Shown here in pieces: positions 7,120 through 43,439 of a stretch of DNA of 43,439 bases (position 1 is its first letter; each line of letters starts with the position of its first letter). The stretch comes from a virus. Lineage: Duplodnaviria > Heunggongvirae > Uroviricota > Caudoviricetes. The translations under genes were made by a program, and so were the position numbers. The notes below the pieces were generated by a model. That model was not told where the DNA came from. It saw nothing but the letters and a program-made list of their open reading frames with translations, and did no database searches. The stretch lies in IMG/VR virus record IMGVR_UViG_2711768068_000024; one strand, written 5' to 3'.

Positions 7120-7635
7120 TCAGAGGCCGAGGGCGTTGCGGTGCGCTTCCATCAGGTCCACACCGTCCACAATTTCCACCATGTTGATAAGGTCAACTTC
7201 ATAGAGCACCTCACCATTGATGGTCAGCTTCGCGTAGCTGTTGGTACTGGTCACTTTGGTAGTGTTGCTTTCGCCCGTCTTCCACTCGCCGGAATCCACT
7301 TCTTTGTGACGTCCACGCACGACAAGCTCCACGGCCTGCACTTCCCCGGTATCGTCACGCTGGATAGAGCCGGTAAAGCGCAGCTGGATGCCATCCACCG
7401 TGGATTTGCCCATCTGCTTAAACAGCAGCAGTTCAGTACCACCAATGGAAAATTCTGTATCCAGTGCACTGTCATCCAGTCCCAGATCCACATCCACCGC
7501 CCCCGGCATACCGCCGCCGCGATACTTCTCATATTTGCGGGTGAATTTCGGCAGCGTCAGCGACTCAACGATCCCCTGCCAGTTGTTCCCGTCGTTAAAC
7601 AAGTTCAGATGTTTTAATTTGCGTGGTAAAGCCAT
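7120..7635 (-). CDS. Tail tube protein gpFII
   Basis: 171-aa ORF directly downstream of the sheath gene. Confidence 0.85.
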   Translation of the reverse strand: MALPRKLKHLNLFNDGNNWQGIVESLTLPKFTRKYEKYRGGGMPGAVDVDLGLDDSALDTEFSIGGTELLLFKQMGKSTVDGIQLRFTGSIQRDDTGEVQAVELVVRGRHKEVDSGEWKTGESNTTKVTSTNSYAKLTINGEVLYEVDLINMVEIVDGVDLMEAHRNALGL

Positions 7636-16172: not shown

Positions 16173-17159
16173 ATGAAAAATAAGAACCAGTATCAGGCTT
16201 TACTTAGAGGGAAGGTCGAATCGGCGATTGCTCAAGCCAAAAGTGCTGCAGGATTTTCCCACCAGGGTGTTAAGGGAGCTGTTCTAGAAATATTATTAAG
16301 TCAACTATTTCGACCTCTTTTGCCCGCAGATGTTGGCATTGGCACAGGGCAAATCATTGAACAGTATTCAGGAAAGTTATCACCTCAAATAGATATTATT
16401 ATTTACAATAAATCAATACTCCCTCCGATATTAATCGATGGTGCCACAGGGTTATTCCCAATAGAATCAGTTCTATATACCATTGAGGTAAAAACCACAT
16501 TAAGTTCATCGGAACTCAGCTCTGCACACTCAAGTGCAAAAGAACTTAATGAGAAATTCGGTTACTTACCTGGAATAAAAGATGAATCAGGCAAACTAAT
16601 CCAACACAAAATAGAGAAACTTCGCTCGGTAATATTTGCTCTAAGTAGTGACTTATCACCAAATGGAATTACTGAAGCCGAAAGGTATAAAAAAATATAC
16701 AAAGAAGACTTTCGTTACGTTACAGCAATTTGCGTTGCAGGTCGTGAGTATAGTTATGAAGATCGAGATTGCTGGGTAACAATGCGTAATACTCAAGCGT
16801 ATGATGAAATCCTTGCATTTATTGGAGGCATAACCAATACATACAAAGGTGTTTCAGAAAGTCGTGGGACACCATTGCTAGGATATTACATTGTTCCAGA
16901 GAATGTCGAACTGAGCCTTACAGCTTGTACCACACTCCCGGAATTGCAAGTTAAGTGCACGCAATGCGCTGAAACTAAAAAAATAATCCCCACCTTTGAC
17001 AACGATGATGAACTAATACTAAAAAACTACACTCTTTCTGATAACAAGCCTTGTAAATGTGGTGGGGAATTTAAATCAGAAAAAGGTAATTTCACCATTA
17101 AAAATGGTCGACTGAGAGAAATAGAGTACAACGAGCCAGATCGAATTTACAAAGAGTAA
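16173..17159 (+). CDS. Cargo (moron) protein: possible PD-(D/E)xK-type motif with C-terminal zinc ribbon; function unknown
   Basis: 328-aa AT-rich ORF on the opposite strand between tail genes V and S; N-terminal region has a possible E...D...E-x-K arrangement (LEILL / QIDIIIYNK / TIEVK); C-terminus CTQC...CKCGG. Confidence 0.65.
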   Translation: MKNKNQYQALLRGKVESAIAQAKSAAGFSHQGVKGAVLEILLSQLFRPLLPADVGIGTGQIIEQYSGKLSPQIDIIIYNKSILPPILIDGATGLFPIESVLYTIEVKTTLSSSELSSAHSSAKELNEKFGYLPGIKDESGKLIQHKIEKLRSVIFALSSDLSPNGITEAERYKKIYKEDFRYVTAICVAGREYSYEDRDCWVTMRNTQAYDEILAFIGGITNTYKGVSESRGTPLLGYYIVPENVELSLTACTTLPELQVKCTQCAETKKIIPTFDNDDELILKNYTLSDNKPCKCGGEFKSEKGNFTIKNGRLREIEYNEPDRIYKE

Positions 17160-22747: not shown

Positions 22748-24514
22748 ATGAACACCACACTGACACCCGCAGATCTCGATCCCCGTCGGCAGGCCATGCT
22801 GCTGTACTTTCAGGGATACCGCGTCGCCCGCATTGCTGAAATGCTGGGCGAGAAAGTTGCAACCGTTCACAGCTGGAAAAAACGCGACAAGTGGGGTGAC
22901 TATGGGCCGCTGGATCAGATGCAGCTCACCACCGCCGCACGCTACTGCCAGCTCATTATGAAGGAGCACAAAGAAGGGAAAGATTTCAAAGAAATTGACC
23001 TGCTGGCACGCCAGTCTGAGCGCCACGCGCGGATCGGCAAGTTTAACAATGGCGGCAACGAAGCCGACTTAAACCCTAACGTTGCCAACCGCAACAAAGG
23101 CCCACGTCGTCAGCCGGAAAAGAATGTTTTCACCGATGAACAGATTGAGAAACTGGAAGAAATCTTCCATTCCTCTATGTTCAACTACCAGCGCCACTGG
23201 TGGGAAGCCGGAAAAACCAACCGCATCCGCAACCTGCTGAAGTCACGCCAGATCGGCGCGACCTTTTACTTTGCCCGTGAAGCCCTGATTGACGCCCTGC
23301 TGACCGGGCGTAACCAGATTTTCCTTTCTGCCAGCAAGGCTCAGGCCCACGTCTTTAAACAGTACATCATCGACTTTGCCAAAGAAGTGGAGGTGGAGCT
23401 GAAAGGCGATCCGATGGTGCTTCCTAACGGGGCCACGCTTTACTTCCTCGGCACCAATGCCCGCACGGCCCAGAGTTACCACGGCAACCTGTATCTGGAT
23501 GAATATTTCTGGATACCGAAATTCCAGGAGCTGCGCAAAGTGGCTTCCGGTATGGCTATTCACAAAAAATGGCGACAAACCTATTTTTCCACGCCATCCA
23601 GTCTGACACACAGTGCTTATCCGTTCTGGTCCGGTGCGCTGTTCAACCGTGGGCGCAACAAAGCCGATAAGGTGGACATCGACCTGTCCCACAGCAATCT
23701 GGCCCCCGGCCTGCTGTGCGCAGACGGGCAATACCGCCAGATAGTCACCGTGGAAGATGCGGTGCGCGGCGGCTGTAACCTGTTCGACCTCGACCAGCTA
23801 CGCATGGAGTACAGCCCAGACGAATACCAGAACCTGCTGATGTGCGAGTTTGTGGACGATCTCGCGTCCGTGTTTCCGCTCAGCGAGCTGCAGGCGTGCA
23901 TGGTGGACAGTTGGGAAGTCTGGACCGACTTTCATGCACTGGCGCTGCGCCCGTTTGGCTGGCGCGAAGTGTGGATCGGTTATGACCCGGCAAAAGGTAC
24001 GCAAAACGGCGACAGCGCTGGATGCGTGGTGGTGGCACCGCCAGCCGTGCCGGGTGGTAAGTTCCGCATTCTTGAGCGTCACCAGTGGCGCGGGATGGAC
24101 TTCCGCGCCCAGGCTGACGCCATCAAAAAACTTACCGAACAGTACAACGTGACTTATATCGGTATCGACTCAACCGGCGTTGGTCACGGGGTTTACGAGA
24201 ACGTGAAAGCGTTCTTTCCTGCCGTCCGGGAGTTTGTCTACAACCCCAACGTTAAAAACGCCCTGGTACTCAAGGCCTACGACATTATCAGCCACCGCCG
24301 TCTGGAGTTTGACGCCGGGCACACCGACATTGCGCAGTCATTCATGGCAATCCGTCGCGCAACCACCGCCAGTGGCAACCGCCCAACCTATGAAGCCAGC
24401 CGCAGCGAAGAAGCCAGCCACGCCGATCTGGCCTGGGCAACAATGCACGCACTGTTTAACGAACCACTGCAGGGCGAGTCCGCCAATACCAGTAATATTG
24501 TGGAGATTTTTTGA
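22748..24514 (+). CDS. Terminase ATPase (large) subunit gpP
   Basis: 588 aa, divergent from the O-N-M-L operon as in P2. Confidence 0.9.
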   Translation: MNTTLTPADLDPRRQAMLLYFQGYRVARIAEMLGEKVATVHSWKKRDKWGDYGPLDQMQLTTAARYCQLIMKEHKEGKDFKEIDLLARQSERHARIGKFNNGGNEADLNPNVANRNKGPRRQPEKNVFTDEQIEKLEEIFHSSMFNYQRHWWEAGKTNRIRNLLKSRQIGATFYFAREALIDALLTGRNQIFLSASKAQAHVFKQYIIDFAKEVEVELKGDPMVLPNGATLYFLGTNARTAQSYHGNLYLDEYFWIPKFQELRKVASGMAIHKKWRQTYFSTPSSLTHSAYPFWSGALFNRGRNKADKVDIDLSHSNLAPGLLCADGQYRQIVTVEDAVRGGCNLFDLDQLRMEYSPDEYQNLLMCEFVDDLASVFPLSELQACMVDSWEVWTDFHALALRPFGWREVWIGYDPAKGTQNGDSAGCVVVAPPAVPGGKFRILERHQWRGMDFRAQADAIKKLTEQYNVTYIGIDSTGVGHGVYENVKAFFPAVREFVYNPNVKNALVLKAYDIISHRRLEFDAGHTDIAQSFMAIRRATTASGNRPTYEASRSEEASHADLAWATMHALFNEPLQGESANTSNIVEIF

Positions 24515-25551
24515 TGGGAAAGAGTAAGAAGAACCGCGCTGCGTCGACGAACCAGATCCAGCATAAAAGTCAAACTACAGCCGAAGCATTCAGCTTCGGT
24601 GATCCCGTTCCTGTTCTGGACCGCCGCGAACTACTGGACTATGTGGAATGCGTACAGACAGATCGCTGGTATGAGCCGCCAGTAAGCTTTGACGGACTGG
24701 CGCGCACCTTCCGCGCCGCCGTGCATCACAGTTCACCAATTGCGGTGAAATGCAACATTCTGACCAGTACCTACATCCCCCACCCGCTGCTCAGCCAGCA
24801 GGCTTTTTCACGTTTTGTGCAGGACTATCTGGTATTTGGTAACGCCTACCTGGAGAAACGCACGAACCGCTTCGGTGAAGTTATCGCCCTTGAGCCTGCT
24901 CTGGCAAAATACACCCGACGCGGGTTAGACCTGGATACCTACTGGTTTGTGCAATACGGCATGACTACGCAGCCGTATCAGTTCACGAAAGGCAGCATCT
25001 TTCATCTGATGGAACCGGATATCAACCAGGAGATCTACGGCCTGCCCGGTTATCTTTCTGCCATTCCGTCAGCCCTGCTCAACGAGTCCGCCACGTTGTT
25101 CCGCCGTAAGTATTACATTAACGGCAGCCATGCAGGCTTCATCATGTACATGACCGATGCCGCGCAGAATCAGGAGGATGTGAACAACCTCCGCAACGCG
25201 ATGAAAAGCGCCAAAGGTCCAGGCAACTTCCGCAACCTGTTTATGTACTCACCTAACGGCAAAAAAGACGGGCTTCAGATCATCCCATTGTCAGAAGTCG
25301 CGGCGAAGGATGAATTTCTTAACATCAAGAACGTGAGTCGGGATGACATGATGGCAGCGCACCGCGTGCCGCCGCAAATGATGGGGATTATGCCGAATAA
25401 TGTTGGGGGGTTTGGGGATGTGGAAAAGGCAAGCCGTGTATTCGTCCGAAATGAGCTAATGCCACTACAAAAGCGATTACAGGAGATGAATGATTGGCTT
25501 GGCAAGGAGGCGATACAGTTTAATACCTACTCGCTAGATATAGTCCCATAA
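24511..25551 (+). CDS. Portal protein gpQ
   Basis: 346 aa, 4-nt overlap with P, P2 Q-like. Confidence 0.9.
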   Translation: MMGKSKKNRAASTNQIQHKSQTTAEAFSFGDPVPVLDRRELLDYVECVQTDRWYEPPVSFDGLARTFRAAVHHSSPIAVKCNILTSTYIPHPLLSQQAFSRFVQDYLVFGNAYLEKRTNRFGEVIALEPALAKYTRRGLDLDTYWFVQYGMTTQPYQFTKGSIFHLMEPDINQEIYGLPGYLSAIPSALLNESATLFRRKYYINGSHAGFIMYMTDAAQNQEDVNNLRNAMKSAKGPGNFRNLFMYSPNGKKDGLQIIPLSEVAAKDEFLNIKNVSRDDMMAAHRVPPQMMGIMPNNVGGFGDVEKASRVFVRNELMPLQKRLQEMNDWLGKEAIQFNTYSLDIVP

Positions 25552-25585: not shown

Positions 25586-26326
25586 TTACTCAATAGGTTC
25601 AAACTCATCCTGAGGAATCAGCGTCGATTGACAGGCTTGGCTTAGTACTCCTGATAATTTACATAATAACCGATAGTTATGAGGAGCATCATCGCTAATC
25701 TTTTCGACCGTTAAAGTGATTGATTTTGGATCATCCAATAACATCTTCTTGATATCATTACTTAAATACCTAGGGCAGTAACCAACGATTTCAGCTGGTT
25801 TATCTGCACGAACGACAACAGCATCCCCATCGTATTCATTTTGAAGATCCAAGCAAAGACGCAAAATTTGCCCCGGTTTCAATTCAGATACACGAGCATT
25901 AGCTAAGCTATTTAAGTAACCAAGTCCATGTAAGAAGAAAAAATGCTCAAAGTTACCATCAGAATCAACATCAATTTTTTTGAAAATCTGCAGCTGATCA
26001 GTGCTTCGTAAGCCTCCCGAGCGAGCAAGAATATCGATAGGATTTACCTTATCTTCTTCAAATCCAAGCCATTTAATGAAACTCGGATACTCTGGACGTC
26101 TCGGTGATAAAAGGCGATTTTTAAAAAGAGGAAACAATTCTTCCGAAACATAAGTTTCACGAACATCACTCATGCCGCTAAACTTTGTAAATTTAGTAGA
26201 TTTAAGAGCACCTTTGGTATACCTGAAAACATACCCCGATTTGCGCTCTTGCAAGTTACCAACAACATGCCAGTCTCTGGTATCTGGTGCCTGCCATGCG
26301 ACGTAAACGGAGTTTGTATTAGTCAT
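25586..26326 (-). CDS. HipA-N-terminal-like domain fused to HIRAN-like domain
   Basis: 246 aa; N-terminus VYVAWQ..VVGNL..YVFRY..ELFPLFKNRLL resembles the HipA N-terminal subdomain; C-terminus ILRLCLDLQNEYDGDAVVVRADKPAEIVGYCPRYL fits the HIRAN pattern; 4-nt overlap with the upstream kinase gene. Confidence 0.55.
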   Translation of the reverse strand: MTNTNSVYVAWQAPDTRDWHVVGNLQERKSGYVFRYTKGALKSTKFTKFSGMSDVRETYVSEELFPLFKNRLLSPRRPEYPSFIKWLGFEEDKVNPIDILARSGGLRSTDQLQIFKKIDVDSDGNFEHFFFLHGLGYLNSLANARVSELKPGQILRLCLDLQNEYDGDAVVVRADKPAEIVGYCPRYLSNDIKKMLLDDPKSITLTVEKISDDAPHNYRLLCKLSGVLSQACQSTLIPQDEFEPIE

Positions 26327-27237
26327 TCTAGTAACCTTCTGCGATTTTCCATTACCATTAACGTTGCAAATCTACGTGCACTGTCGGATATACACGATGA
26401 AGGCACTTGGTTAAACACATCTGTAATGGAATCTTCTGTTAAAACGCTCAACTTACCTAACCAATGGTCGCGAGCGGCAACTCTCCCTTCAACTGCATGT
26501 TGAAATGCTTCAACGGTCAGCAAGGGCTTTTTATCAGTTTTTGCTTTGAATAGCTCAGAGCGAGCTTTTCTTACAAAACATGGGATTTGTCGATTTTTAT
26601 CTTTAGTATTAAGCCGTTCGTTACGCTCATCATCTAACATCTCCCTTCCTAAACTAGCGGCATGATCGTATGTTGGACACAAAAACTGCTCACCAGTTTC
26701 ATTGTTAAGCATGATCGCCCAATTTTCATGATGGCGATCTTGATTACTCACAAGTGCATCGAGCATCAAATATCCACAAAATACATCTGCTGCATTTAGC
26801 CCGGTTAGATCATATACACTCGGAGGAGGCTTGATAGATTCCCTATCCAAACAACCCAATACCCTTGTGACAGTGTGTTCTCTGACCCTTACCGGCTTTT
26901 CCCCGGCTTGTAAAGGCCCAGGATAATCGAATGTCGAACTGTGAAGCACTTCATTTCCCATTACCATCCGGAAACCAGATGGAATGATATTCTGAGTCAC
27001 CACACCGAATCGACCATTGTATCGCGCCAAATCATAGCTAGCATGTGGAATGTTAAGCAAATGACATAACTCAGCAGCACACTTTTCAGACCAATGCTCG
27101 CCAGTACCTGGCCTAGAGTACTTAAACAACTGCAAATTTACAGTGTCATCGGAGAAATAGAACCAAAACTTCTCTTTGGTTCCTAACTGTTCAAGATCGT
27201 TAGCTACGGGGCTAAGCTCTACCAATTGGTATGGCAT
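26323..27237 (-). CDS. HipA-like Ser/Thr kinase core (HipT-like, no N-terminal domain)
   Basis: 304 aa; GTKEKFW (P-loop-like), LVSNQDRHHENWAIM (catalytic loop, compare HipA GATDGHAKNFS), PTYDHAASL (metal-binding YD). Confidence 0.7.
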   Translation of the reverse strand: MPYQLVELSPVANDLEQLGTKEKFWFYFSDDTVNLQLFKYSRPGTGEHWSEKCAAELCHLLNIPHASYDLARYNGRFGVVTQNIIPSGFRMVMGNEVLHSSTFDYPGPLQAGEKPVRVREHTVTRVLGCLDRESIKPPPSVYDLTGLNAADVFCGYLMLDALVSNQDRHHENWAIMLNNETGEQFLCPTYDHAASLGREMLDDERNERLNTKDKNRQIPCFVRKARSELFKAKTDKKPLLTVEAFQHAVEGRVAARDHWLGKLSVLTEDSITDVFNQVPSSCISDSARRFATLMVMENRRRLLE

Positions 27238-29741: not shown

Positions 29742-32156
29742 TTAATACAGGTTCCGCCACTTATCATCTTCCTGCAAACGCTGGTTCCGATAGAAGATAC
29801 GCAGGCCTGCTCCTGACGGAATACTGCCGCCGCGAAGGAGTAAATCGACCTCTTTCTCGCTGCCATCAAATCCTCTGGATTTCAGTTCATAGACGAGCTG
29901 CTGTCGTTGATGGTCTGTAATTCGCTGTTTGTAGTCTCTACGCCGTTTCGGTTTCACCAGACGTAACCTTGCAGCCAATTCCCGGCGCTCCTTTTTGTTC
30001 ATACTGTGCAGGTAATCGTGCAACACCTTGTCATCCATGCGGGTAATGTCCGTTCTGGGGTCCCCATCAGCTGATTTATCTTTCTCCTGTTGGTTCAAAT
30101 TTTCAGCAAGGGGACAGTTATTGCCACGAGTCCAAGGGGCGCAAGCGCCCTGGTCGGCTGCCGCCTCCTGAACGTCAACGGCCTTACGAACCATTTTCCA
30201 CTTCACCGCATGAGTGCAGATCTTGCCCTCTGCAATGGGTGACCAGATGCCATAAATACGAATACCGTGATCGCCATAGGCGGTCGGCTCTTCGTTGATT
30301 TCATAAGCAGTTCTGATGAGGTGATATTTGCGGGGAACCAGTACGCCGCCCTGCTTCATGATGTAGGTGGCAAAACAACCAGCATCAGCAGCAGCCAGGA
30401 TTGCATCAAGGCGCGGGTTATCCAGTACCGGCGCACCTGCTTTTTTGTCCCCCTGTTGCCTTGCCGCCTGACCAGCCAGCAATCGCAGTTCACGGTAAGC
30501 CTGACGCCCCGGAATGCCAAAGAAGCGGAATTGCTGAACACGATGCAGAGACGCCCAGGCATTAACGTATTCAGCGTTATCACGCAGGGATTTACCCGTT
30601 TCCTTGCTGATCTCGCCAGCCAGACCACGCCCGTCAATGTTCTTACTGATGTATTTCGCGATGTAGCTTGTTGGCGTACCTTTGCGCGGGTTTATCAGCT
30701 CAGACTTAAAGCGTGGCCCCGTGTTATTGCCCAGCTCCTCGCGGTCTTCACGGATGGCAAACTTACGCAACAATGCAGTAATGGCGCGGCGGTCTTTTTT
30801 GCGCATGAAACACAACAGGTGCCAGTGAACTGTGCCGTCATGATGCGGTTCAGCCACCCGCACGCCATACCAGCGCAACCCGGCTTTGTGCATAGCCTTA
30901 CGAAATGCAGCAAACATGCCGACCAGATAATCGCTGCTTTGTCTTACCGTCGCGTTTGTCCAGGTCGGGTTTGGTCTGCCGTTATTGAGCGTGGAATGGA
31001 AACGCGACGGACAGGTGATAGTGTAGAAAACGGCACAGTCACTGCGCATTTCTGCGATAAGCTCCAGACCTTTAACACAGGCCATCATCTCATTGCGGCG
31101 ATGCGCCGGGTTGCTGCTGCTGGCGTTTACCACATCCTCCATGTCCAGCGTGTCGCCGTCTTCGTTCACCAGTTCATGAGAACGGAAAAACTCCAGCGAC
31201 TTACGGCGCTGCTCACGTTTATGCATCACGGCTTCATAGCTGACATAGGGAGATGCTTTTTTGCTGACCAGGCAAACAGCACGCAACTGCTCTTCCCGCC
31301 ATTCGCAACGCATCTTCCATAATTTCCGGTACCACCAATCGGCGCACAACATACGCGCCAGCGAACCCGGAATGAGTTCATAGGGCACGGGTTTACGGCG
31401 GTTTCTTTTCCGACGAAGTTGCTCAAACGCAGGCGGGATAACATCCAGTCGCAGGGTTTCTGCTGCCACCTTTTCCCATGTCTTGCGGATTTCTTCTGGC
31501 TTAACATCATCGGTGGCGTACAAATCACCACAAGCGGCATCAAGACACATGCTCATATGCGCAGCGACAAGAGTAGACAGGCGTTTCACCTGATCCTGAC
31601 TCATTTCAGGCAGAATCAGCAGGTCGTCCAGCCCTACATGGCTTGCCATAAAACGAAAAGATGCAGATAGCTGGCTGTCGCGTACATGCTCCAGTCGCTC
31701 CAAACATGGCTTAATCGTCTCACGCAAATAGCGGGAATAAGCCTTTGGCCTGCCCAAGCTGCTGAAGTATTCAATACGTTGCATCAGCGGCTTGCTGATA
31801 TGGGAAGGCTGGGCATTGACGTCCGCCAGAATGACCATATCTGGATTAAAACGCTGCTGCTCATGCGCCAGCTTTGCCCGACTAATGAGCTTATCCTGCT
31901 CCATTTCGCGCTGGACAGGATCACGGGATTCATTAAAGAAATAACGCTCCCAGACCTGATCACTCAGTGCCTCGCGGCGCAGGTGTTCCTGCTCGTTATC
32001 GGCAGCGTACAGAGCGATCAGGTTTGAAAGCGCAGAAACCGGCGCAACTTCCGCCGGGTCCAGATAAGGGTTAATGGCCTTTTTCGGGCTGTTCCATGAG
32101 AACGCTGCGGCAGCCTCGTTAAAGCCGCAGCAGTTGTTCATATCGGCATGGCTCAT
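29742..32156 (-). CDS. Replication initiation protein gpA (rolling-circle nickase)
   Basis: 804 aa, P2/186 A-like size and position. Confidence 0.9.
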
Positions 32157-34297: not shown

Positions 34298-34807
34298 TCA
34301 CAGCAAACCGAATGAAGCACCGAGGCCAGTCACAGTATCAACTGCACTCGCCATCGCAGGGTTAGCCTGTAAACGGGCCTGCAATGAAACAGCCGCCAGC
34401 GCCATCAGTCGTGTTACAGAATTAATGCTGCTGATGGCATCACGACGACCGGCACTGGTTTTTACATCGCCAGATACCGCACCTGCAGCAACACGCCCGA
34501 TCTCTGCGGTTGCACTCATGACGTAATGCGGCAGTTTCTCTTTTGCTACCTCATTAATCGGTACACATGGCAGGCAGTGAATCTGTGCCAGAAAACCATC
34601 TATCAGCGTTGAATCTTCAGTCAGATCGGTAAGCAGCCAGATTTCTGGCGCATTGAGCTGATGCGGTTGATCTGGGTTGAGTTTGTTTCGCAGAGTCTGG
34701 ACATTCATTCCTGCACGTTCTGCCAGCTTCGCCATATTGTGACGAAGTGCAAAAGCTCTACAGGCTTCATCAAAATGCGGGTGTTTGGAAATCTTATAAT
34801 CAAACAT
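34298..34807 (-). CDS. cII: Lysogeny establishment regulator CII (186-type)
   Basis: 169 aa (same length as 186 CII), directly downstream of apl. Confidence 0.75.
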   Translation of the reverse strand: MFDYKISKHPHFDEACRAFALRHNMAKLAERAGMNVQTLRNKLNPDQPHQLNAPEIWLLTDLTEDSTLIDGFLAQIHCLPCVPINEVAKEKLPHYVMSATAEIGRVAAGAVSGDVKTSAGRRDAISSINSVTRLMALAAVSLQARLQANPAMASAVDTVTGLGASFGLL

Positions 34808-34839
34808 GCTACCCCCTTAGAAAGTTCTCATAATTGAAC

Positions 34840-35082
34840 TTACTTACCAACAATGACGCGGAAGTTGGAATGACCGAGGGATTCACGGACCTGATCGGTT
34901 TTGTACATTAAATAACGCAGGCTTACGCGGCCTTTGTTTTTTTCTTTCTTGACCATGTATTTAGCAAGCTGACCATGGTGAATTTTTTGATACACGGAGC
35001 CGCGGGAGATACCTTCCCATTCCGCGAACTCTGCAGGCGTAGCCATCTCTTTTGGTACACGAATTGAAATATCAGTGCTCAT
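34840..35082 (-). CDS. apl: Excisionase/transcriptional regulator Apl (Cox-like)
   Basis: 80-aa HTH protein, first gene of the lytic operon, divergent from cI. Confidence 0.7.
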   Translation of the reverse strand: MSTDISIRVPKEMATPAEFAEWEGISRGSVYQKIHHGQLAKYMVKKEKNKGRVSLRYLMYKTDQVRESLGHSNFRVIVGK

Positions 35083-35201
35083 AGTGCAGTATCTCCCGAT
35101 TAAGGTTTGGTTTACGTCGTTTTATCTCGTTTTACTTGATTCAATATTTGATACATCGAGATACTACGATCCAATATTTGATACGTCAACAGGATTAAAA
35201 A
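35083..35201. promoter_or_regulatory. Immunity switch region (face-to-face pR/pL) with direct repeats
   Basis: Two copies of CAATATTTGATAC(A/G)TC 30 bp apart (~35142-35157 and ~35172-35187) plus CGTTTTA repeats (~35116-35134), between divergent apl and cI. Confidence 0.55.
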
Positions 35202-35834
35202 ATGATACATGTAAAGGTTGGAGAGAATACAGGGGGAAGAGAGGCTATCCATAGACTAATGGCAGCCTATGATTTCAAGTCCAGACAGCAACTTTGCGAT
35301 CACTTAGGCGCATCAAAAAGCACCATGGCAAACAGATACTTAAGAGATAGTTTTCCTGCAGAGTGGGTGATTCAGTGCGCCTTGGAAACAGGAGTTTCTT
35401 TACTGTGGCTAACCACCGGACAGGGGGAGCCAGGTTCAAACATTGAACCCCAAAAAAATATCAATTCCGTGAACTCCAGCAAGGTTATACCTCTTTCTGA
35501 ACTAGTATCTCCTGAAATTGACAAGGCGACTCTCAACGGTGGTTTATTGATCGATGCTGGAAAAGCAATCATTGATAGCAGCATACTCCCCTCAGACTCA
35601 AGCAACCTACTGCTGGTGACTACTTCTGGTGATTCTTATTTAATAGATCGCAACCAAACACCACCAGTAAATGGTATGTGGTTAGTCGATATCGACGGGA
35701 TAAAAAGCATTGTTAAATTGACTCGACTCCCGGGAAACAAATTAGTAGTACATCAGGATGATTCATCGTTTGAGTGTGGCCTAGATGACATTGAGGTAGT
35801 AGGCCGCGCACTGAAAATCATTAAGAGCCTTTGA
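35202..35834 (+). CDS. cI: Immunity repressor CI (186-type, N-terminal HTH)
   Basis: 210 aa; HTH segment QQLCDHLGASKSTMANRYLR; immediately followed by int on the same strand as in 186. Confidence 0.75.
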   Translation: MIHVKVGENTGGREAIHRLMAAYDFKSRQQLCDHLGASKSTMANRYLRDSFPAEWVIQCALETGVSLLWLTTGQGEPGSNIEPQKNINSVNSSKVIPLSELVSPEIDKATLNGGLLIDAGKAIIDSSILPSDSSNLLLVTTSGDSYLIDRNQTPPVNGMWLVDIDGIKSIVKLTRLPGNKLVVHQDDSSFECGLDDIEVVGRALKIIKSL

Positions 35835-35835
35835 T

Positions 35836-36852
35836 ATGACCATCAGAAAACAGCCGAACGGAAAATGGTTGTGTGAGTGCTATCCCAATGGACGCAATGG
35901 TAAGCGCGTGCGTAAGCAATTTGCTACGAAAGGCGAAGCCATTGCTTTTGAAAGCTTCACAATGGAAGAAGTGAATAAAAAACCGTGGTTGGGTGAAAAG
36001 GATGATCGGCGACGCCTATCAGAATTAATTGAGCTTTGGTATTCCCTGTATGGTCAGACACTCGCAGACCCCAAGCGCCTCATGGCGAAACTTAGAATTA
36101 TCTGTAATGGTCTAGGCGACCCCATCGCCTCAGAACTGACAGCCGGTGACTTTACGAAATACCGCGAAGCACGGTTAAAAGGTGACGTTCGTAACGAAGA
36201 CGGCACACTAATGTCGCCAGTAAAACCACGCACGGTGAATCTTGAGCAACGTAACCTATCATCGGTTTTTGGCACATTGAAAAAACTAGGCCACTGGTCA
36301 GCACCAAATCCTCTCGCCGGGCTGCCAACATTTAAAATCGCTGAGGGGGAACTGGCGTTCCTGACCTCGGAAGAAATTAAACGTCTGCTAGATGCCTGCG
36401 CTGATTCTCAAAACCCCAGTCTGCTTTTGATTGCAAAAATATGCCTGGCCACCGGCGCACGCTGGAGTGAAGCCGAAAACCTGCAGGGCCATCAGTTATC
36501 TAAATACCGCATCACTTATACCAAGACGAAGGGTAAGAAAAACCGCACCGTGCCGATATCTCAAGATCTGTATGACGAACTCCCCAAGAACAGAGGGAAG
36601 CTATTCACCCCGTGCAGAAAAGCCTTTGAACGAGCAGTAAAGCGAGCTGGCATCGAGCTGCCAGAGGGCCAATGCACTCACGTGCTACGTCATACATTCG
36701 CCAGCCATTTTATGATGAATGGCGGAAACATACTGGTGCTGCGCGATATTCTGGGCCATGCCGATATAAAAATGACGATGATCTATTCTCATTTTTCACC
36801 AGAACACTTAGAAGATGCAGTAACTAAGAATCCTTTAAATTATATTGAGTGA
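35836..36852 (+). CDS. int: Tyrosine integrase (P2/186 family)
   Basis: 338 aa; C-terminal catalytic region (..HVLRHTFASHFMMNGG..LRDILGHADIKMTMIYSH) with the R...H-x-x-R...Y pattern; adjacent to attR. Confidence 0.9.
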   Translation: MTIRKQPNGKWLCECYPNGRNGKRVRKQFATKGEAIAFESFTMEEVNKKPWLGEKDDRRRLSELIELWYSLYGQTLADPKRLMAKLRIICNGLGDPIASELTAGDFTKYREARLKGDVRNEDGTLMSPVKPRTVNLEQRNLSSVFGTLKKLGHWSAPNPLAGLPTFKIAEGELAFLTSEEIKRLLDACADSQNPSLLLIAKICLATGARWSEAENLQGHQLSKYRITYTKTKGKKNRTVPISQDLYDELPKNRGKLFTPCRKAFERAVKRAGIELPEGQCTHVLRHTFASHFMMNGGNILVLRDILGHADIKMTMIYSHFSPEHLEDAVTKNPLNYIE

Positions 36853-37919
36853 AAATCATGTTAAGTGATACTTGTTATACAGTGATTTATATTGCAGCAA
36901 TCGTTTTATTAGTATTTATTACAATAGTAAAAAAATGGTACATGCTTGATAAAAGAAATTTATTTCGTCAGAAATTATTTTGGATTTCAGTTTTAACACC
37001 TTTATTTTCCTTTATCTATTTTGGTTTTTTCACATGGTGGGGAAAAGAACCAGTACTCTCCGCACATGGCTATTCAAGATTTTACGAAATAAGCAAATTC
37101 CCTCTACTATTGCTAGCTAGTGCAGTTCCTTTGGCTTCGATCGTCAACAATATACATCGCACTATACAAACCGAAGCTCAGATCAACACCGCTGAAACGA
37201 AAAATGCAGTCGATAGATATTTAGCACATGAGAAAAACTTTATTGAGAAAACAAAGGAAATATTCGCCTACAATCTTCAAAGCGCGAGAGACTCAGATGG
37301 AAACCTCATTAAATTCAATGGCGAACCAAATATCACTTTGTTTACAGCAGATGAAATTAAAATTTCCAACCCATATCTTTTATATACAAAAATATACAAC
37401 AAATCAAATATAGAGACCACATCTAACTTCACCGCAAACCCTGATTTTTTAGTGCAATTAAAGGAGTACTTAAACACAATTAATAATACTCTGTCGGTTC
37501 AACACTCTATAGATGAATATAATCCATTAAGTTACATGATTCGACTTAACACTTTGTCATATAATACAGCCTCGTTATTAGACCTGATATGTACATCCCC
37601 CATATCTCATGTATACTGTTTGATAAAATATGATGGGTATCAATTAAAAACATTTACACTTGAAGAACAAGTATTCGCCGATATTTTAGAAATATCATAT
37701 CTTCTATCAAGAAAACTAATTCGTTTGATATATAATGAAGATATACCACATTACGACAACATTTATAATTACTTATATGTTGGTAAGTTGAGGTTTAAAT
37801 TCAGAAAACACGCCAATTCTTTACAAGCATTTTCTTCGCAGGAATGGGCTGATTACGTTTCTGAAGCACTAACTCTAGTTCCTAACGAAGTTGGCGGCAC
37901 TTTGGCGGCAGCGCATTAA
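36849..37919 (+). CDS. Membrane-anchored cargo protein of unknown function between int and attR
   Basis: 356-aa very AT-rich ORF (GTG at 36849 or ATG at 36858); three predicted N-terminal TM helices then an Asn/Tyr/Ile-rich soluble domain. Confidence 0.65.
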   Translation: MKIMLSDTCYTVIYIAAIVLLVFITIVKKWYMLDKRNLFRQKLFWISVLTPLFSFIYFGFFTWWGKEPVLSAHGYSRFYEISKFPLLLLASAVPLASIVNNIHRTIQTEAQINTAETKNAVDRYLAHEKNFIEKTKEIFAYNLQSARDSDGNLIKFNGEPNITLFTADEIKISNPYLLYTKIYNKSNIETTSNFTANPDFLVQLKEYLNTINNTLSVQHSIDEYNPLSYMIRLNTLSYNTASLLDLICTSPISHVYCLIKYDGYQLKTFTLEEQVFADILEISYLLSRKLIRLIYNEDIPHYDNIYNYLYVGKLRFKFRKHANSLQAFSSQEWADYVSEALTLVPNEVGGTLAAAH

Positions 37920-38004
37920 AAATTAGTAAAATGGACAAACACTACATAACAATAACGCACTGTTTTTAAATGCAAACTACTGTTTTTGCTATAGTAAAAA
38001 TGGT

Positions 38005-38049
38005 ATGTAGGAATTTCGGACGCGGGTTCAACTCCCGCCAGCTCCACCA
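38005..38049. repeat. attR: second copy of the 45-bp ssrA 3'-end repeat
   Basis: Identical to 1016..1060; followed by a hairpin/T-tract and then the P4-type integrase gene, i.e. the original ssrA 3' flank. Confidence 0.85.
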
Positions 38050-38085
38050 CTTTTTAGTTGTTTGAAGTTCAATGAAGTCTACTAA

Positions 38086-38117
38086 GCCCACACAGCACAA
38101 GCTCTGCGGGCTTTTTT
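38086..38117 (+). terminator. Probable displaced native ssrA terminator
   Basis: Imperfect hairpin GCCCACACAGC..GCTCTGCGGGC followed by TTTTTT. Confidence 0.4.
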
Positions 38118-38172
38118 ACGTCTATTGTCGTCCAGTGAGAATTGCTGAGAACTACGAGTTATGGCACCCTGA

Positions 38173-39444
38173 ATGGGACCCATTAAGAAGGGTCCAAAAA
38201 CCGAGGGTCCCAAAATGGCAAAAATCGCTAAGAAGCTCACTGACACTGAAATCAAAAGCACCAAGCCAGCCGATAAAGAAATCAACTTGTTTGACGGTGA
38301 TGGTCTGATTCTACGAATCGCTCCTTTGGCGAAAGGAGGCAAGAAAAATTGGTATTTCAGGTATGCAGTACCAGTGAGCAAGAAAAGAACCAAAATGAGC
38401 CTTGGGACATATCCTCACCTTACCCTTGCAAGAGCCAGAGCCTTACGTGATGAATATCTCTCCTTTCTGGCAAATGGTGTTGATCCCCAAATCCATAACA
38501 ACGATAAGGCGAAGGCATTAAAGAGTGCTACTGAGCACACTCTCCAAGCCGTAGCGCGGAAATGGTTAGATGAGAAGGTAAAGACATCAGGTATCTCACA
38601 AGACCATGCAGCAGACATCTGGCGCAGCTTAGAGAGAAATGTCTTTCCCGGTCTGGGTAATGTCCCTATCAATGAGATCCGACCTAAGCTCTTAAAACAA
38701 CACCTTGATCCTATTGAGCAACGAGGCGTATTGGAAACTCTACGCCGTATCATTTCACGTCTGAATGAAATCTTCCGGTGGGCAGCTACTGAAGAACTTA
38801 TTGAGTTCAACCCGGCTGACAACCTTGGTCAAAGATTCAGTAAACCAAAAAAGCAAAATATGCCTGCCCTTCCCCCAAGCGAATTGCCAAGGTTTATGGA
38901 ATCTTTGACGAATGCGTCAATCCGGTTGGAAACACGTATGCTAATTGAATGGCAATTGTTGACATGGGTTCGTCCGGGTGAAGCCGTTCGCGCAAGGTGG
39001 TCTGATATTGATACAACCAACAGCATTTGGAACATTCCTGCTGATTTCATGAAAATGAAAAAGCTTCACAAAGTTCCTTTGAGTAAAGAAGCTTTGCGCA
39101 TCCTTGAATTAATGAAATCAATAAGTGGGCATAGAGAATGGGTTTTCCCCAGCATAAAAGCGCCTCTTAATCATATGCATGAACAAACAGCCAACGCAGC
39201 TATCATCCGAATGGGGTTCGGAGGCGAGCTTGTAGCTCACGGTATGCGTTCTATTGCACGAACAGCGGCAGAGGAGTCTGGTAAATTCAGAGCTGAAGTT
39301 CTTGAGGCAGCGCTTGCCCACTCGAAAAAAGATGAAATTATCGCAGCATACAATCGTGCAGAATATCTGATAGAGCGACAGAGTTTGATGCAATGGTGGA
39401 GTGATTACGTTCAAGCTCAAAGATCAAATGCTCTGGTAGCCTAA
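38173..39444 (+). CDS. intA: P4-type tyrosine integrase (IntA/CP4-57 family)
   Basis: 423-aa track ORF; N-terminal KLTDTEIKSTKPADKEINLFDGDGLILRI is the P4-integrase arm-binding pattern; true start may be the Met at 38215. Confidence 0.85.
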   Translation: MGPIKKGPKTEGPKMAKIAKKLTDTEIKSTKPADKEINLFDGDGLILRIAPLAKGGKKNWYFRYAVPVSKKRTKMSLGTYPHLTLARARALRDEYLSFLANGVDPQIHNNDKAKALKSATEHTLQAVARKWLDEKVKTSGISQDHAADIWRSLERNVFPGLGNVPINEIRPKLLKQHLDPIEQRGVLETLRRIISRLNEIFRWAATEELIEFNPADNLGQRFSKPKKQNMPALPPSELPRFMESLTNASIRLETRMLIEWQLLTWVRPGEAVRARWSDIDTTNSIWNIPADFMKMKKLHKVPLSKEALRILELMKSISGHREWVFPSIKAPLNHMHEQTANAAIIRMGFGGELVAHGMRSIARTAAEESGKFRAEVLEAALAHSKKDEIIAAYNRAEYLIERQSLMQWWSDYVQAQRSNALVA

Positions 39445-39482
39445 GTATCAGAATAGCTAATATAATCCTGAAGGTAAAGAAA

Positions 39483-39899
39483 ATGGAAACCCTATTCAAA
39501 GTTTTTGAAAAATTTAGTTCCAGACCACTTTTTTTTATTTTTTTCGGACTCTCACTTTGTGAATTTTTTCAGAAACAATCTGTTCTGATGAATCCATCAG
39601 CAGATAACATCGCGAAATTATTCGCAGCCATGATATTAGTTGTTTTTTTTACTTGGGGATTTGAATGGCTAATCTTCAAGTTCAATGTAAACCTTGAACC
39701 TCATGATCAAGGCGATATTGGACCAACAATTGGAACGGCTACTTTAGCTGTATACTTAGTTTATGCCTTTCACTTTCTCAGTGAAAATCCTGAAGCATTA
39801 AATTTAAAGTTATTAACTAACTCTGGCTTTATATACAGCACAACTCTATTATTATTCTCATTAGAATGCATGAAGCTTAGAAGACTTAAACAAAAATAA
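39483..39899 (+). CDS. Small multi-pass membrane protein, unknown function
   Basis: 138-aa ORF with about four hydrophobic segments; AT-rich; convergent with the kinase/receiver operon. Confidence 0.5.
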   Translation: METLFKVFEKFSSRPLFFIFFGLSLCEFFQKQSVLMNPSADNIAKLFAAMILVVFFTWGFEWLIFKFNVNLEPHDQGDIGPTIGTATLAVYLVYAFHFLSENPEALNLKLLTNSGFIYSTTLLLFSLECMKLRRLKQK

Positions 39900-39970
39900 A
39901 CAACATCATTGTGATGATAAATATAAAATAGGCATGGCGAAAAAAAATCACCACGCCTAAAATATAATAA

Positions 39971-41737
39971 TTATGGTAGCATCATTGATACATAATCCAC
40001 ACCAATCCTTGAGCTATACTGAGACGCTATAGCCTGATATCTTTCTGCATAACCAGTTCTCAGTTGAGATTTAAGTTTGAGTCGGACAGGAACATTTTGC
40101 ACGTTGCCATCCATATTACTTAAAAACACGGCAGAAATAATATTTTTTTCTTCGCCATCAACTGTTGTTCCATGATTCAACACCACCATATAATCAACAA
40201 CAGGAAGCGTTTTATCCCCTTCGAAAATAGAGAGATATTTTCTTTGATTTTTATGCATTACATATATATATTTCGAATGTTCAGCAAATGGCAATGCTTT
40301 ACTCTGACTGGCGTTAAAAAGCTCCAGAACTTTAATGAGCCTGTGCGGACTTAATCTTACATGGTGAGGGTCGTTACCCTGAGTAGGAACCAAATCACAT
40401 GCCGCAGATACACATAAATACCATTTGTTCGACTCTGTATCAAAGAAAATAGTGCCAGTAGAAATATGACCATCTTCAAAATTCTTTGAAGACAAATTCA
40501 TATTTAAAGCATGATACATTTCGTGATAAGTATCATTATTTGATGGCAGATCCATTTTTGAAGAGCAATATTGGAGCAATGCAGCAACTCCGCTGTTAGC
40601 GTATTCATTTGAATAGCTATCAAAAACACTTTTGATAAATTCATCCAGCGTATTATTATTTTTAAGTCTTTGATAAAGCTCTTCTGATAAATTACCAAAT
40701 ACAAAGTCAATATTTCTACATCTAATATCAGGCGAGTCTGATTTTAATATCTCATTTAACCACGCAGCTTGACCGTAATGATCGTTAGCCAAATGATTTA
40801 CAAAAGATAAAGCCTCAGCTTCGATTGCATTCTGAATTTCAGATTTTATTAACTGATAATAAGATGGTTTCCATTCAATGAGAGAATCATTGAGAGTTTG
40901 CCAAATCCTATCTCCATCGTTTTCATGATCATCTTGAACCTTATGAAATAGGGAGACAAAGATATTACCACATTGAATCCATTTTACTCCGCTTTCATCA
41001 CCCCGAATGACATTGCCAGATGTGTTGCTAGAAATAATTGCATTTCTAGACACAGCATATTCTGCAATCATTTTTGCAATGAAGTTTTTATCCTTTTGAT
41101 CCTCCAACACAGCATCATCATGTATTAATCTTTTAATTCTTCTACAAGGCTTACTGTCTTTAATATAGGCTATTGTTTCATCTCTTGTGAGAGCTTTATT
41201 ACCATTATCATTTAAGTTCGGTAATACAACGTCTTCCCAATAACTTTGGACATCTTCATTATCGTAGTCAATGATCAAGCTGTTGATATCCAGAGCACCT
41301 TTGAGAGTCGATGATATCTGCATCCAAACCGTTTCTAAATTCTCTCTAGTATATATTACAATCATATTTAAATGATCGGAGTCTTTCAAATCTTGTAATA
41401 GTTTAAGTGTTTTATCAGGTGCATTATTATCAAGATGATAATCTACAATAATAAGATCTGATTTTCTAATCCGATCCACATCGAAATTAACAGAACCATT
41501 GTCAACATCACAAATCATATTTTTAGATTGAAAAAAGCTCTCAAGAGTAGCGGCTCGTTTAGATGAGTCAATTTTGTTGTAGTCTAAATCAACTTCGTTA
41601 TTCAACGCCCTGATTGATTCAGAATACGTCAGAAAATCGTCATCAATCATGACAACGGAACGAATTGCATTTTCGCAGAAAGTTTTCTGGACAAGAGAAT
41701 TATAATTTGCCACTGTCATATTAGAACTCCACTCCAT
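39971..41737 (-). CDS. Receiver (REC)-like domain fused to a large uncharacterised C-terminal domain
   Basis: N-terminal ~140 aa show receiver hallmarks (VVMIDDD, DLIIVDYHLD, MIVIYT); ~430 further aa unassigned; more likely start is the RBS-preceded ATG at 41719, 1 nt after the kinase stop. Confidence 0.65.
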   Translation of the reverse strand: MEWSSNMTVANYNSLVQKTFCENAIRSVVMIDDDFLTYSESIRALNNEVDLDYNKIDSSKRAATLESFFQSKNMICDVDNGSVNFDVDRIRKSDLIIVDYHLDNNAPDKTLKLLQDLKDSDHLNMIVIYTRENLETVWMQISSTLKGALDINSLIIDYDNEDVQSYWEDVVLPNLNDNGNKALTRDETIAYIKDSKPCRRIKRLIHDDAVLEDQKDKNFIAKMIAEYAVSRNAIISSNTSGNVIRGDESGVKWIQCGNIFVSLFHKVQDDHENDGDRIWQTLNDSLIEWKPSYYQLIKSEIQNAIEAEALSFVNHLANDHYGQAAWLNEILKSDSPDIRCRNIDFVFGNLSEELYQRLKNNNTLDEFIKSVFDSYSNEYANSGVAALLQYCSSKMDLPSNNDTYHEMYHALNMNLSSKNFEDGHISTGTIFFDTESNKWYLCVSAACDLVPTQGNDPHHVRLSPHRLIKVLELFNASQSKALPFAEHSKYIYVMHKNQRKYLSIFEGDKTLPVVDYMVVLNHGTTVDGEEKNIISAVFLSNMDGNVQNVPVRLKLKSQLRTGYAERYQAIASQYSSRIGVDYVSMMLP

Positions 41738-43439
41738 TGAACTGGATCACAAAATTAGCGCCATCTTTTATTAAATAGTTATCGCCTTCATCAGGTTCTG
41801 AATACCATATTTTATGATGTGCAACAGCAAGGTTTTCTCGACATAGATACAGACCTACCCCATGTCCATTTGCTCTTTTGCTATAAAATAGTTCAAATAG
41901 TCGCGGGATATCATCGGTATCAATTGCCGGACCAGAATTTGCTATGATAACCAAAGAATTCACAAAACCAATCTTTATGAGCCTATTATTTGACAGACTG
42001 ACCCAATACATTGCATTGTTGATAATATTAGTAAAAACAGGATAGATCCTTGATGGTATATCTGTTATTGCGATTTGCTTAAACTCTTCACTAAATTCAA
42101 TAGTTATTCGTTGCCGTTCGAAACGCTCCCCAAAGAACTTCAGGACATAATCCATGATATTTTTTCCAGTTATTCTCTGCCTGGATTGATAACCTGATAT
42201 TTTCAAAGGTGATAAGAAACGTATTTGTTGAGTAAGCGATCTGTGAGCATTTAACGCCAATGAAAAACCAGGGTGTTCTTTTACAGAAGTAGGAAGAGAG
42301 TTTAGTCCTCTGGTTACCATAGAATCCATTTCTTCAAGTTCATGAGATATTATCTCAACACTAATACCTAACTGTGCAAGCGCGTTTAAACTTTTAGCTT
42401 TTTCTTCAAAATATGAGCGTTCTTCTTCAGATAATGAGAATGCTGAATCTAAGTTTATACCTTCAAATAATCCATCGAGACCTTTTATTATTGATTGATA
42501 TTTGAAAGTTAGGGTATCAACTGACTCAACATATAAACTATCGAGCAAATTAAACACATTTTCAATTTGTGAATCATTATCTATTGAATCAACAACTGAT
42601 ATAGTTTTAGCATAATAATCACTTCGATCAACCTTTATTTCATCGGCCCATTTTTTTAAAAGAGAATGTATCTTCTCCTCTATCGTGTTATTAAACTTAG
42701 TTAGTTTAGAATTAATAATACCTTGATTTTTTTCAAGGTGATTTTTCGCTGACAATGAAGGCTCAAGTTTATTTAATTCAGAATCAAGTTTATTAATTGC
42801 TAACTTCATTTGTAGAATATACGCAGAGAACTCATTAAATTTATCTCTGTAGTCTCTATATTTCTCTTCATACATTCCAAGTTTTGGAGGTTTGATAGGC
42901 GTTTTAATTTCACTGCGCAACGCATCTAAGTTTGTAAGATCACTGTCTATAATTTTAAGATAGTTTAAATCTAACGAACCATCAGTTTTATCAAGCTTAG
43001 TTTTCAGCCTTTTAACAGCCTCCAAGGAAGCATCAAGAACTGGTGTCTGATTCTTCAAAGCTTCTGAAAAACTTTTTTGTGTTGATTTTCGAGCTTGTTG
43101 TTGAGCAGATTTTCTTAACTCTTTTTCACGCTTAACTTGTTCTAAAAGCTCTTTACGGTCATCAGAACGTGAACCAAAAAATCTATCAGCAAGTTCAGTT
43201 AACAAATTAGATATAATAGTTTTCAGTTCTCTTGCAGCCTGGTTTCTTATGAATCCCTCTCTCCCCGACTTATCTTTCAGCTCTTTATTACTGGATTGAG
43301 TAATTCCAATATAACCAAAAATCCTTCTATTAGACCAATAATATCGCCCTGCATTCCATGAACGTCTTTCTTCTATCTGGAAGAAATCATTATCTACTCG
43401 ACCATAAGGTAATACTCTCAAGCTATCCCTAAAAATCAT
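41721..43439 (-). CDS. Histidine-kinase-like protein (H-box + HATPase_c), 5' end probably outside the window
   Basis: ISHELEEMD (H-box), FTNIINNAMYW (N-box), NSGPAIDTDD and GHGVGLYL (G-boxes) in canonical order at the C-terminus; long K/E-rich N-terminal region without TM segments; ORF open to the window edge. Confidence 0.75.
   Translation of the reverse strand: MIFRDSLRVLPYGRVDNDFFQIEERRSWNAGRYYWSNRRIFGYIGITQSSNKELKDKSGREGFIRNQAARELKTIISNLLTELADRFFGSRSDDRKELLEQVKREKELRKSAQQQARKSTQKSFSEALKNQTPVLDASLEAVKRLKTKLDKTDGSLDLNYLKIIDSDLTNLDALRSEIKTPIKPPKLGMYEEKYRDYRDKFNEFSAYILQMKLAINKLDSELNKLEPSLSAKNHLEKNQGIINSKLTKFNNTIEEKIHSLLKKWADEIKVDRSDYYAKTISVVDSIDNDSQIENVFNLLDSLYVESVDTLTFKYQSIIKGLDGLFEGINLDSAFSLSEEERSYFEEKAKSLNALAQLGISVEIISHELEEMDSMVTRGLNSLPTSVKEHPGFSLALNAHRSLTQQIRFLSPLKISGYQSRQRITGKNIMDYVLKFFGERFERQRITIEFSEEFKQIAITDIPSRIYPVFTNIINNAMYWVSLSNNRLIKIGFVNSLVIIANSGPAIDTDDIPRLFELFYSKRANGHGVGLYLCRENLAVAHHKIWYSEPDEGDNYLIKDGANFVIQFNGVEF

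Follow-up and report, generated by a model that had tools for sequence, protein, structure and literature searches.

A membrane-protein family in the int-attR slot of a Fels-2-like prophage as candidate phage-resistance cargo

The window analysed here is a 43,439-nucleotide (nt) stretch of DNA (IMG/VR virus record IMGVR_UViG_2711768068_000024) containing a P2/186-type prophage, and the gene under study fills the interval between the integrase gene (int) of that prophage and its right attachment site (attR). This gene, of 353 amino acids (aa) at 36858-37919 on the + strand, is a horizontally acquired cassette in a documented defence hotspot, and its product belongs to a family that is uncharacterised and without a detectable fold relative. 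Because relatives of the prophage carry anti-phage genes in the same slot, the product is a candidate phage-resistance protein; judged from genomic context, a membrane anti-phage role expressed in the lysogen, whether by abortive infection or by superinfection exclusion, is the most likely one. What was already known is the slot itself and the idea that cargo in prophage hotspots is candidate defence.

The prophage spans 37 kb with 50.5% GC between its attL and attR copies. The attL core (1016-1060, +) is the last 45 bp of an intact transfer-messenger RNA (tmRNA) gene, ssrA (698-1060), and the attR core (38005-38049, +) is an exact 45-bp copy of the ssrA 3' end that also gives a partial Rfam tmRNA match. 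At the right end of the prophage, cII and apl lie on the minus strand, followed on the plus strand by the lysogenic operon, in which cI (35202-35834) stands directly 5' of int (35836-36852; 47.6% GC), both assigned with Pfam. The integrase is of the Fels-2/SopEPhi/RE-2010 type, with 92-94% aa identity to the integrases of Fels-2, SopEPhi, RE-2010 and Cartapus (92% for Fels-2, and 91-94% for SopEPhi and RE-2010 in a further comparison). This places the element in the Fels-2 lineage, with ssrA as its integration site. Promoter-like sites, placed by consensus scanning only, occur before cI (35178-35206, +) and opposing it (35189-35161, -), an arrangement matching the face-to-face pL/pR layout of phage 186 (PMC7498355).

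An uninterrupted open reading frame (ORF) runs on the + strand from 36849 to 37919, between int and attR, with its stop codon 85 bp before the attR core, and it is extremely AT-rich as an earlier note on this DNA had described. The same note had the frame encode 356 aa from the integrase stop codon onwards, which did not hold. The GTG at 36849 overlaps the int stop and is absent from the closest allele (81% identity), in which int ends in TAA, and it was rejected as a start. The ATG at 36858, 5 nt after the int stop, is retained in that allele together with the N-terminal sequence MLSDTCYT and is also the start assigned by PGAP. For these reasons translation most likely begins at 36858, giving 353 aa (WP_053921333.1, “hypothetical protein” in PGAP). 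The gene has a GC content of 32.8%, and 29% at third codon positions, versus 50.5% for the prophage and 47.6% for int. Its soluble part is rich in Asn (9.3%), Tyr (7.7%) and Ile (8.5%), as had been noted, and also in Leu (12.2%). The gene was found intact and at least 99.5% identical in five of 5426 complete E. coli genomes, these five being all of the carriers. Relative to the 81%-identical allele, the ratio of nonsynonymous to synonymous substitution rates (dN/dS) is 0.26 overall, 0.034 for aa 97-135 and 0.36 for aa 213-343, and the gene evolves under purifying selection. A scan for repeats within the gene gave no noteworthy structure. The ORF is confirmed as a real gene.

Alignment of the window with 13 related loci by blastn delimited a variable cassette at 36838-37891 (31.8% GC). 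Homology between related prophages ends at 36837, where 15 nt remain to the int stop, and in nearly all cases begins again at exactly 37892. The left junction corresponds to the last five codons of int, and the right junction to two direct TGGCGGCA repeats, 11 bp apart (37892 and 37903; 37892-37910, +), with a similar pair adjoining attL at 1109. By analogy with the attP of phage 186, which contains Int arm sites, IHF (integration host factor) sites and Apl operators (PMC7498355), the TGGCGGCA repeats are putative Int arm-type sites. Note that the last 9 codons of the gene (GGTLAAAH) are encoded by these conserved attP-arm repeats, which supply GGTLAA, and are not cargo. Tails of the same type (GG-x-LAA) end several unrelated cargo ORFs, among them a 222-aa cargo that terminates in SGGTLAAES, as well as many members of the family.

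The integrase lineage was present in 219 of the 5426 E. coli genomes, and slot contents were sampled among them. At least seven cargo states were found beside integrases that are 91-99% identical in amino acid sequence. The slot is empty in Fels-2 and in three further cases (H10, L029 and L030). In 25 genomes it holds, on the opposite strand, an anti-phage dCTP deaminase (PADLOC dCTPase, 1.9e-145; also named so by PGAP), and in 11 genomes an RES-like protein of ~400 aa with the same sequence as RE-2010 gp01 and Cartapus gp33 and with 47% identity to SopEPhi orfY; the RES assignment is weak, with Pfam E values of 0.05-0.23 that fall below threshold. A 222-aa membrane protein occupies the slot in 29 genomes (L010, 4028-4696), and a 506-aa unknown protein with 31% GC was found in L028 (3627-5147). 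The remaining occupants are alleles of the cargo family, of 353 aa (5 genomes), 327 aa (7 genomes) and 309 aa, which are only 28-81% identical to one another. The slot is thus hypervariable among close relatives, the outcome of a comparison that the earlier note had proposed; the note's statement that P2/186 phages normally have little or nothing at this place is true of Fels-2 and of some E. coli relatives, and fails for the others, which hold various cargo. In P2-like prophages, the int-att slot has been described as a defence hotspot of minor weight, where 3% of the P2 systems reside (PMC13586616, 2026), and the gene at 36858-37919, between a P2-like int and attR, lies in exactly that position. 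As a separate observation, neither the 222-aa occupant, which has hydrophobic segments, nor the 506-aa occupant gave a Pfam match at E≤0.01 or any PADLOC match.

Membrane insertion was assessed from free energies (dG) summed over 19 residues with a position-independent Hessa-type scale. Two transmembrane (TM) helices are convincing, aa 6-24 and aa 40-58. The first (36873-36929, +; dG −3.2) is a strong TM segment and is poorly conserved; it is missing in 24 of 127 aligned members, such as the 309-aa protein of L031, scored so because fewer than 19 residues precede the conserved core. Hydrophobic helix 2 (aa 40-60; 36975-37037, +; dG +1.1 for aa 40-58) is associated with conserved Q38, F41, P48 and W60. 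The third hydrophobic segment (aa 78-96, ISKFPLLLLASAVPLASIV; 37089-37145, +) has P82, L86 and P91 invariant in the A1 alignment, and with a dG of +5.1 (family median +4.2) it is marginal as a membrane-spanning helix. Of the three N-terminal TM helices previously predicted, then, the first two stand and the third is marginal and proline-kinked.

The most conserved element of the protein follows directly. This stalk motif, NNIHRTIQTxxQIxxxxxKNxxDxxYxHxK (aa 97-126; 37146-37235, +), lies on a long predicted helix covering aa 89-135. Across 127 diverse members, H100 and Q104 are invariant, and R101, T102, T105, Q108, K115, N116, D119, H124 and K126 are conserved in at least 90%. Invariant or nearly invariant positions also include L35, Q38, F41, P48, W60, G71, F75, P82 and L86 on the N-terminal side, further stalk residues including I109, and then Y176, with none conserved beyond residue 180. 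The conserved core (aa 30-130) comprises two hydrophobic helices and the stalk HRTIQT..Q..KN..D..H.K. The soluble alpha/beta domain (aa 136-343; 37263-37886, +) is homologous throughout the family and yet diverges so fast that almost no residues are conserved in it; BLAST coverage likewise shows ~210 conserved N-terminal residues followed by a divergent remainder. An AlphaFold2 (AF2) model computed from a 91-sequence alignment (mean pLDDT 86, pTM 0.72) contains helices at 2-24, 39-60 and 69-87 and a 47-residue helix at 89-135, and then an alpha/beta domain extending to ~333. Net charge is +2.1 after the third segment versus −0.2 in the preceding loop, a positive-inside count that mildly favours a cytoplasmic location for the C-terminal part. 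The side of the membrane that holds the soluble domain is the feature that separates exclusion from abortive infection.

The protein is a member of phrog_17460 (PHROGs v4, unknown function; E=2.5e-44, 153 bits; aa 10-294 aligned to profile positions 6-291 of 343), a family already clustered from phage genomes; because the entry carries no annotation, membership adds no functional information. Family size was estimated with representatives of clusters at 50% identity. A word-seeded search returned 103 homologous clusters, for which all source names given were Enterobacterales species, and a scan of genome contigs confirmed only five related loci and found a homologue in Pseudomonas chlororaphis (L004). 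With an exhaustive profile search, the number of representatives was 1022 at a cut-off of E≤0.001, falling to 505 with E≤1e-10 and to 210 with E≤1e-30. In the list of the 150 best matches, full-length proteins are ~290-440 aa long and most are aligned over most of the profile, and the family accordingly looks like one architecture rather than a shuffled domain.

Scans of the query with Pfam, NCBIfam and PADLOC (DB v2) gave nothing significant, PADLOC having no match at E≤0.1. No entry was matched in structure searches of PDB and BFVD, a profile search of PDB sequences returned designed helical bundles only (E≥0.0014), and Pfam scans over 91 and then 127 family members yielded sporadic membrane-protein noise only. 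In the literature, no paper was found on the accession WP_053921333.1 or on the motif HRTIQT. Several candidate relationships were rejected. DUF3810 (PF12725) scored 18 bits versus a cut-off of 28, with the match confined to the hydrophobic N-terminus. HEPN (RiboL-PSP-HEPN, PF18735) was matched by one of 91 members at 25.1 bits versus a cut-off of 28.4 and not by the query, and the family has neither a conserved Rx4-6H motif nor a HEPN fold match. Foldseek hits to ExbB/TolQ (the MotA/ExbB/TolQ stator family) had E values of 4.6-9.5 and probabilities of at most 0.16 over 72-107 aligned columns, and were taken as chance. The 2TM effector of CBASS (cyclic-oligonucleotide-based antiphage signalling system) was matched by one member (L031, 8.8e-5), and across the 127 members only scattered single matches to differing models appeared: one or two members per PADLOC model, spread over PycTM, 2TM_IV (best 4.4e-5), CBASS 2TM and KwaA. 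We read these as generic membrane-helix resemblance.

Five nucleotides separate the gene from the preceding cI-int pair, which is on the same strand. Spacing between int and the family gene in relatives ranges from overlaps of 4-8 nt (L009, L021 and L034) to gaps of up to ~106 nt (L031), and in near relatives the gene is always directly after int (L002, L003, L005, L006, L009, L017, L018-24 and L031). More distant contexts were taken from five arbitrarily chosen members. The member in L034 comes after int and overlaps it by 8 nt. In L032/33 the gene is placed between cI and int, with a TIR-like gene behind it, and in L035/36 it adjoins the portal gene at the main P2 hotspot. L025 has its member next to a P2-type int fragment, and in L027 the surroundings are chromosomal and unrelated, with a ParE toxin gene nearby. 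Family members are found chiefly in the lysogenic operon (cI-int) of P2-like phages. A scan found no terminator-like site between int and the cargo gene, and the first terminator-like hairpin 3' of the gene (38099-38113, +) is the ssrA terminator, beyond attR. Given the same-strand coupling across 5 nt, the lack of an intervening terminator-like site and the presence of distant members in cI-int operons, expression of the gene in the lysogen is plausible.

Two side observations concern these regions. An Rfam scan of 34500-39600 on both strands gave only the partial tmRNA at attR and a far-below-threshold match to the small RNA IsrM; the latter, a partial match at 37968-38117 (+) in the attR/ssrA terminator region (53 bits versus a gathering score of 376), probably reflects sequence adjoining ssrA in the Salmonella seed. 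At L025 (4985-7249), the neighbours of the family member are a coiled-coil protein of 331 aa, whose C-terminal end carries two hydrophobic helices, and a fragment of 54 aa from the N-terminus of a P2-type integrase. The adjoining stretch resembles tRNA genes, judged by eye from ORF translations; the locus looks like a decayed islet.

We favour the explanation that the gene is a “moron” which entered a Fels-2-like (P2/186-type) prophage by horizontal transfer and took up a swap-in slot between int and attR, that the lysogenic cI-int transcript extends over it, and that its product is an inner-membrane protein that would shield the lysogen from other phages. Helix 2 and the proline-kinked third segment, together with the polar stalk (HRTIQT..Q..KN..D..H.K) at the membrane face, would make up the working module, which would probably be oligomeric and either membrane-perturbing or gating, while the fast-diverging soluble domain (aa 136-343) would determine which phage cue is recognised. 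In the version that we prefer, a cytoplasmic soluble domain senses a phage product and loss of membrane integrity follows, which amounts to abortive infection with the logic of a one-protein RexA/RexB. This version is preferred because of the charge balance and because a polar motif is conserved at the membrane face. In favour of the explanation as a whole are the differing cargo beside one integrase type, the report of the slot as a defence hotspot, the operon-like coupling to int that is retained across alleles, the contexts of the distant members, and the contrast between a conserved core and a divergent C-terminal domain. Also counted towards an anti-phage role is the defence-type cargo in other hotspots of this prophage, namely the PDC-M03 A/B pair and a NucC-like PD-(D/E)xK protein, both described below. 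Anti-phage protection at the membrane, taken in general, is somewhat more likely than not; the favoured explanation as a whole is a tentative choice that falls somewhat short of probable, and its abortive-infection version should be held at or slightly below that level.

Several points weigh against this explanation. Location in a hotspot is guilt by association, which is suggestive and not proof, and the searches gave no consistent similarity to a known defence, exclusion or pore protein. A constitutive pore-former would need tight self-inhibition. Because dN/dS is below 1 even for whole domains, positive selection is not demonstrated. Finally, the AF2 helix break falls at residue 88, in the middle of the third hydrophobic segment; this break and the dG of that segment raise the possibility that it is re-entrant, in which case the soluble domain may be periplasmic and exclusion would be favoured over abortive infection.

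That topology underlies the closest competitor, superinfection exclusion, in which a re-entrant third segment and a periplasmic variable domain would block entry of the incoming genome and the cell would survive. Possible targets may be ejection or tape-measure proteins, or an inner-membrane entry factor. A prophage-encoded, membrane-anchored protein in the lysogenic operon is what exclusion calls for, the third segment is too weakly hydrophobic for insertion on its own, and a variable exposed domain on a conserved anchor would suit an arms race with phage entry proteins. The charge balance after the third segment, however, mildly favours the cytoplasm, and the strongest conservation resides in a polar motif by the membrane, which suggests an active module and not a simple anchor. 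Other identifiable cargo of this slot (the dCTP deaminase and the RES-like and TIR-like proteins) has an intracellular site of action, and the PDB and BFVD searches gave no similarity to exclusion proteins. Exclusion is unlikely, though it is the rival to be taken most seriously.

A lysogenic conversion function unrelated to phages, affecting the envelope, stress tolerance or colonisation, or else an addiction-type toxin that stabilises the prophage, is less likely again. Slots adjoining int-att in the temperate phages P22, Sf6 and SfV carry O-antigen modification (conversion) genes, SopEPhi-type phages are known carriers of virulence morons, and the protein has no recognisable defence domain. 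Known envelope-modifying proteins, by contrast, are polytopic enzymes, whereas this protein has two or three hydrophobic segments and no match to an enzyme family. Alleles that differ at one locus to the point of 28-81% identity, beside an integrase that is 91-99% identical, are seen rather in conflict genes; the same slot can hold a defence gene for dCTP deaminase; and the cassette contains no antitoxin-like partner.

The family protein might also be the membrane effector of a two-part system, triggered by an NAD+-consuming or NAD+-converting partner of the RES-like or TIR-like kind, with the copy in the window being an orphan or having its partner encoded elsewhere. Tandem arrangements point in this direction. 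The slot of L005 and L021-24 holds a family member of 375 aa and, 55 nt after it, a RES-like gene of 397 aa. In a metagenomic P2-like phage (L032, 7001-8988; also L033), the gene after the family member encodes 315 aa with a match to the PADLOC model of TIR effectors (7.5e-9), a pair that could be either a two-gene unit or two stacked cassettes. A few members also weakly match CBASS, Pycsar and retron membrane-effector models. These matches, however, are scattered at one or two members per model, the RES assignment is itself below threshold, and in many genomes the family gene and the RES-like gene each stand alone in the slot. Moreover, a degenerate TGGCGGCA arm-site pair persists between the two stacked genes in L021 (6095 and 7378-7396 for the relic and the right-hand junction), a relic that suggests independent cassettes stacked at one junction. 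We regard a two-part system as improbable. That the frame is non-functional, having arisen by chance in AT-rich filler DNA or being the remnant of a gene in decay, finds some support in the low GC content and the lack of a known domain, and is effectively refuted by the dN/dS values overall and in the stalk, the intact ORF in all five carrier genomes, the breadth of the family in two separate searches (103 clusters and, at E≤1e-10, 505 representatives) and the confident AF2 model.

Further cargo was found elsewhere in the window. Two low-GC genes at 25586-27237 (-) match the PADLOC candidate system PDC-M03, A being a HipA-like kinase (2.1e-122) and B a HIRAN-domain protein (3.4e-93); they lie in the main P2 hotspot, between a gpA-type replication gene (29742-32156) and a putative portal gene (24511-25551). 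A low-GC gene of 328 aa with a DUF6602 domain (16173-17159, +) matches PADLOC models for PD-(D/E)xK and NucC-like nucleases (6.6e-32) and stands among apparent tail genes, probably in a tail-region accessory hotspot. Just inside attL, two small low-GC ORFs of 160 and 143 aa (1184-2136, +) could represent cargo, or else a remnant, at the other end of the prophage; the first shows weak similarity to the C-terminal end of PDC-S48 (3.3e-7). A second mobile island of ~32% GC (38173-43439) follows in tandem directly after attR, and is also found after attR in strain C21 (L010). It contains a P4-type integrase (38173-39444), a 138-aa hydrophobic protein, and a Response_reg_2 protein (39971-41737) convergent with a HEF_HK/HATPase protein (41721-43439) that runs off the window; the last two are a two-component-like pair.

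If the protein is protective, it would represent a widespread new single-gene family for membrane defence or exclusion, with 505 representatives and invisible to Pfam, NCBIfam and PADLOC, and the natural alleles beside a near-invariant integrase would be a ready set for mapping the part that sets phage specificity. A broader version holds that this protein is the founding example of a large single-polypeptide anti-phage family of undescribed fold, riding the cI-int operon and other P2-like hotspots, in which the two-helix module and the HRTIQT stalk form a gated pore and the hypervariable soluble domain recognises triggers directly; this we consider doubtful, although not far-fetched. If there is no anti-phage role, the protein is one more uncharacterised prophage moron.

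Among known systems, the logic proposed here is that of RexA/RexB of phage lambda, which brings about abortive infection from the immunity operon with two proteins, RexB having four TM helices. The cargo protein is likewise encoded in a prophage repressor operon and likewise combines a membrane component with a soluble, possibly sensing part; no similarity in sequence or fold to RexA/RexB appeared in any search, although it was not checked whether the PADLOC library contains Rex models. P22 SieA, HK97 gp15 and T4 Imm are small phage-encoded inner-membrane exclusion proteins, those of P22 and HK97 being made in the lysogen. The cargo protein shares with them its phage origin and membrane location, but it is larger, and no similarity to them was found in BFVD or PDB. 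We know of no counterpart to the conserved polar stalk motif among inner-membrane superinfection-exclusion proteins. The CBASS 2TM, Pycsar PycTM, retron type IV 2TM and Kiwa KwaA effectors also have two or three N-terminal helices and a soluble part, but the cargo query matches none of them, and the cassette contains no cyclase, retron or KwaB partner.

The closest comparisons in position are with other occupants of the slot. The anti-phage dCTP deaminase of E. coli E47, TUM1887 and 600468 shares the slot, the integrase lineage, the attP arm, the sharp boundaries and the low GC content. It is an unrelated cytosolic enzyme of known mechanism on the opposite strand, whereas the cargo protein is membrane-anchored, co-oriented with int and uncharacterised. 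The RES-like proteins SopEPhi orfY, RE-2010 gp01 and Cartapus gp33, known since the SopEPhi genome record, are likewise single-gene occupants of the same slot in the same lineage; they have no sequence relationship to the cargo protein and no hydrophobic segments, and can stand in tandem with a member of its family. Seen beside these occupants, the locus shows at base-pair resolution how the int-att slot of Fels-2/SopEPhi-type phages swaps cassettes.

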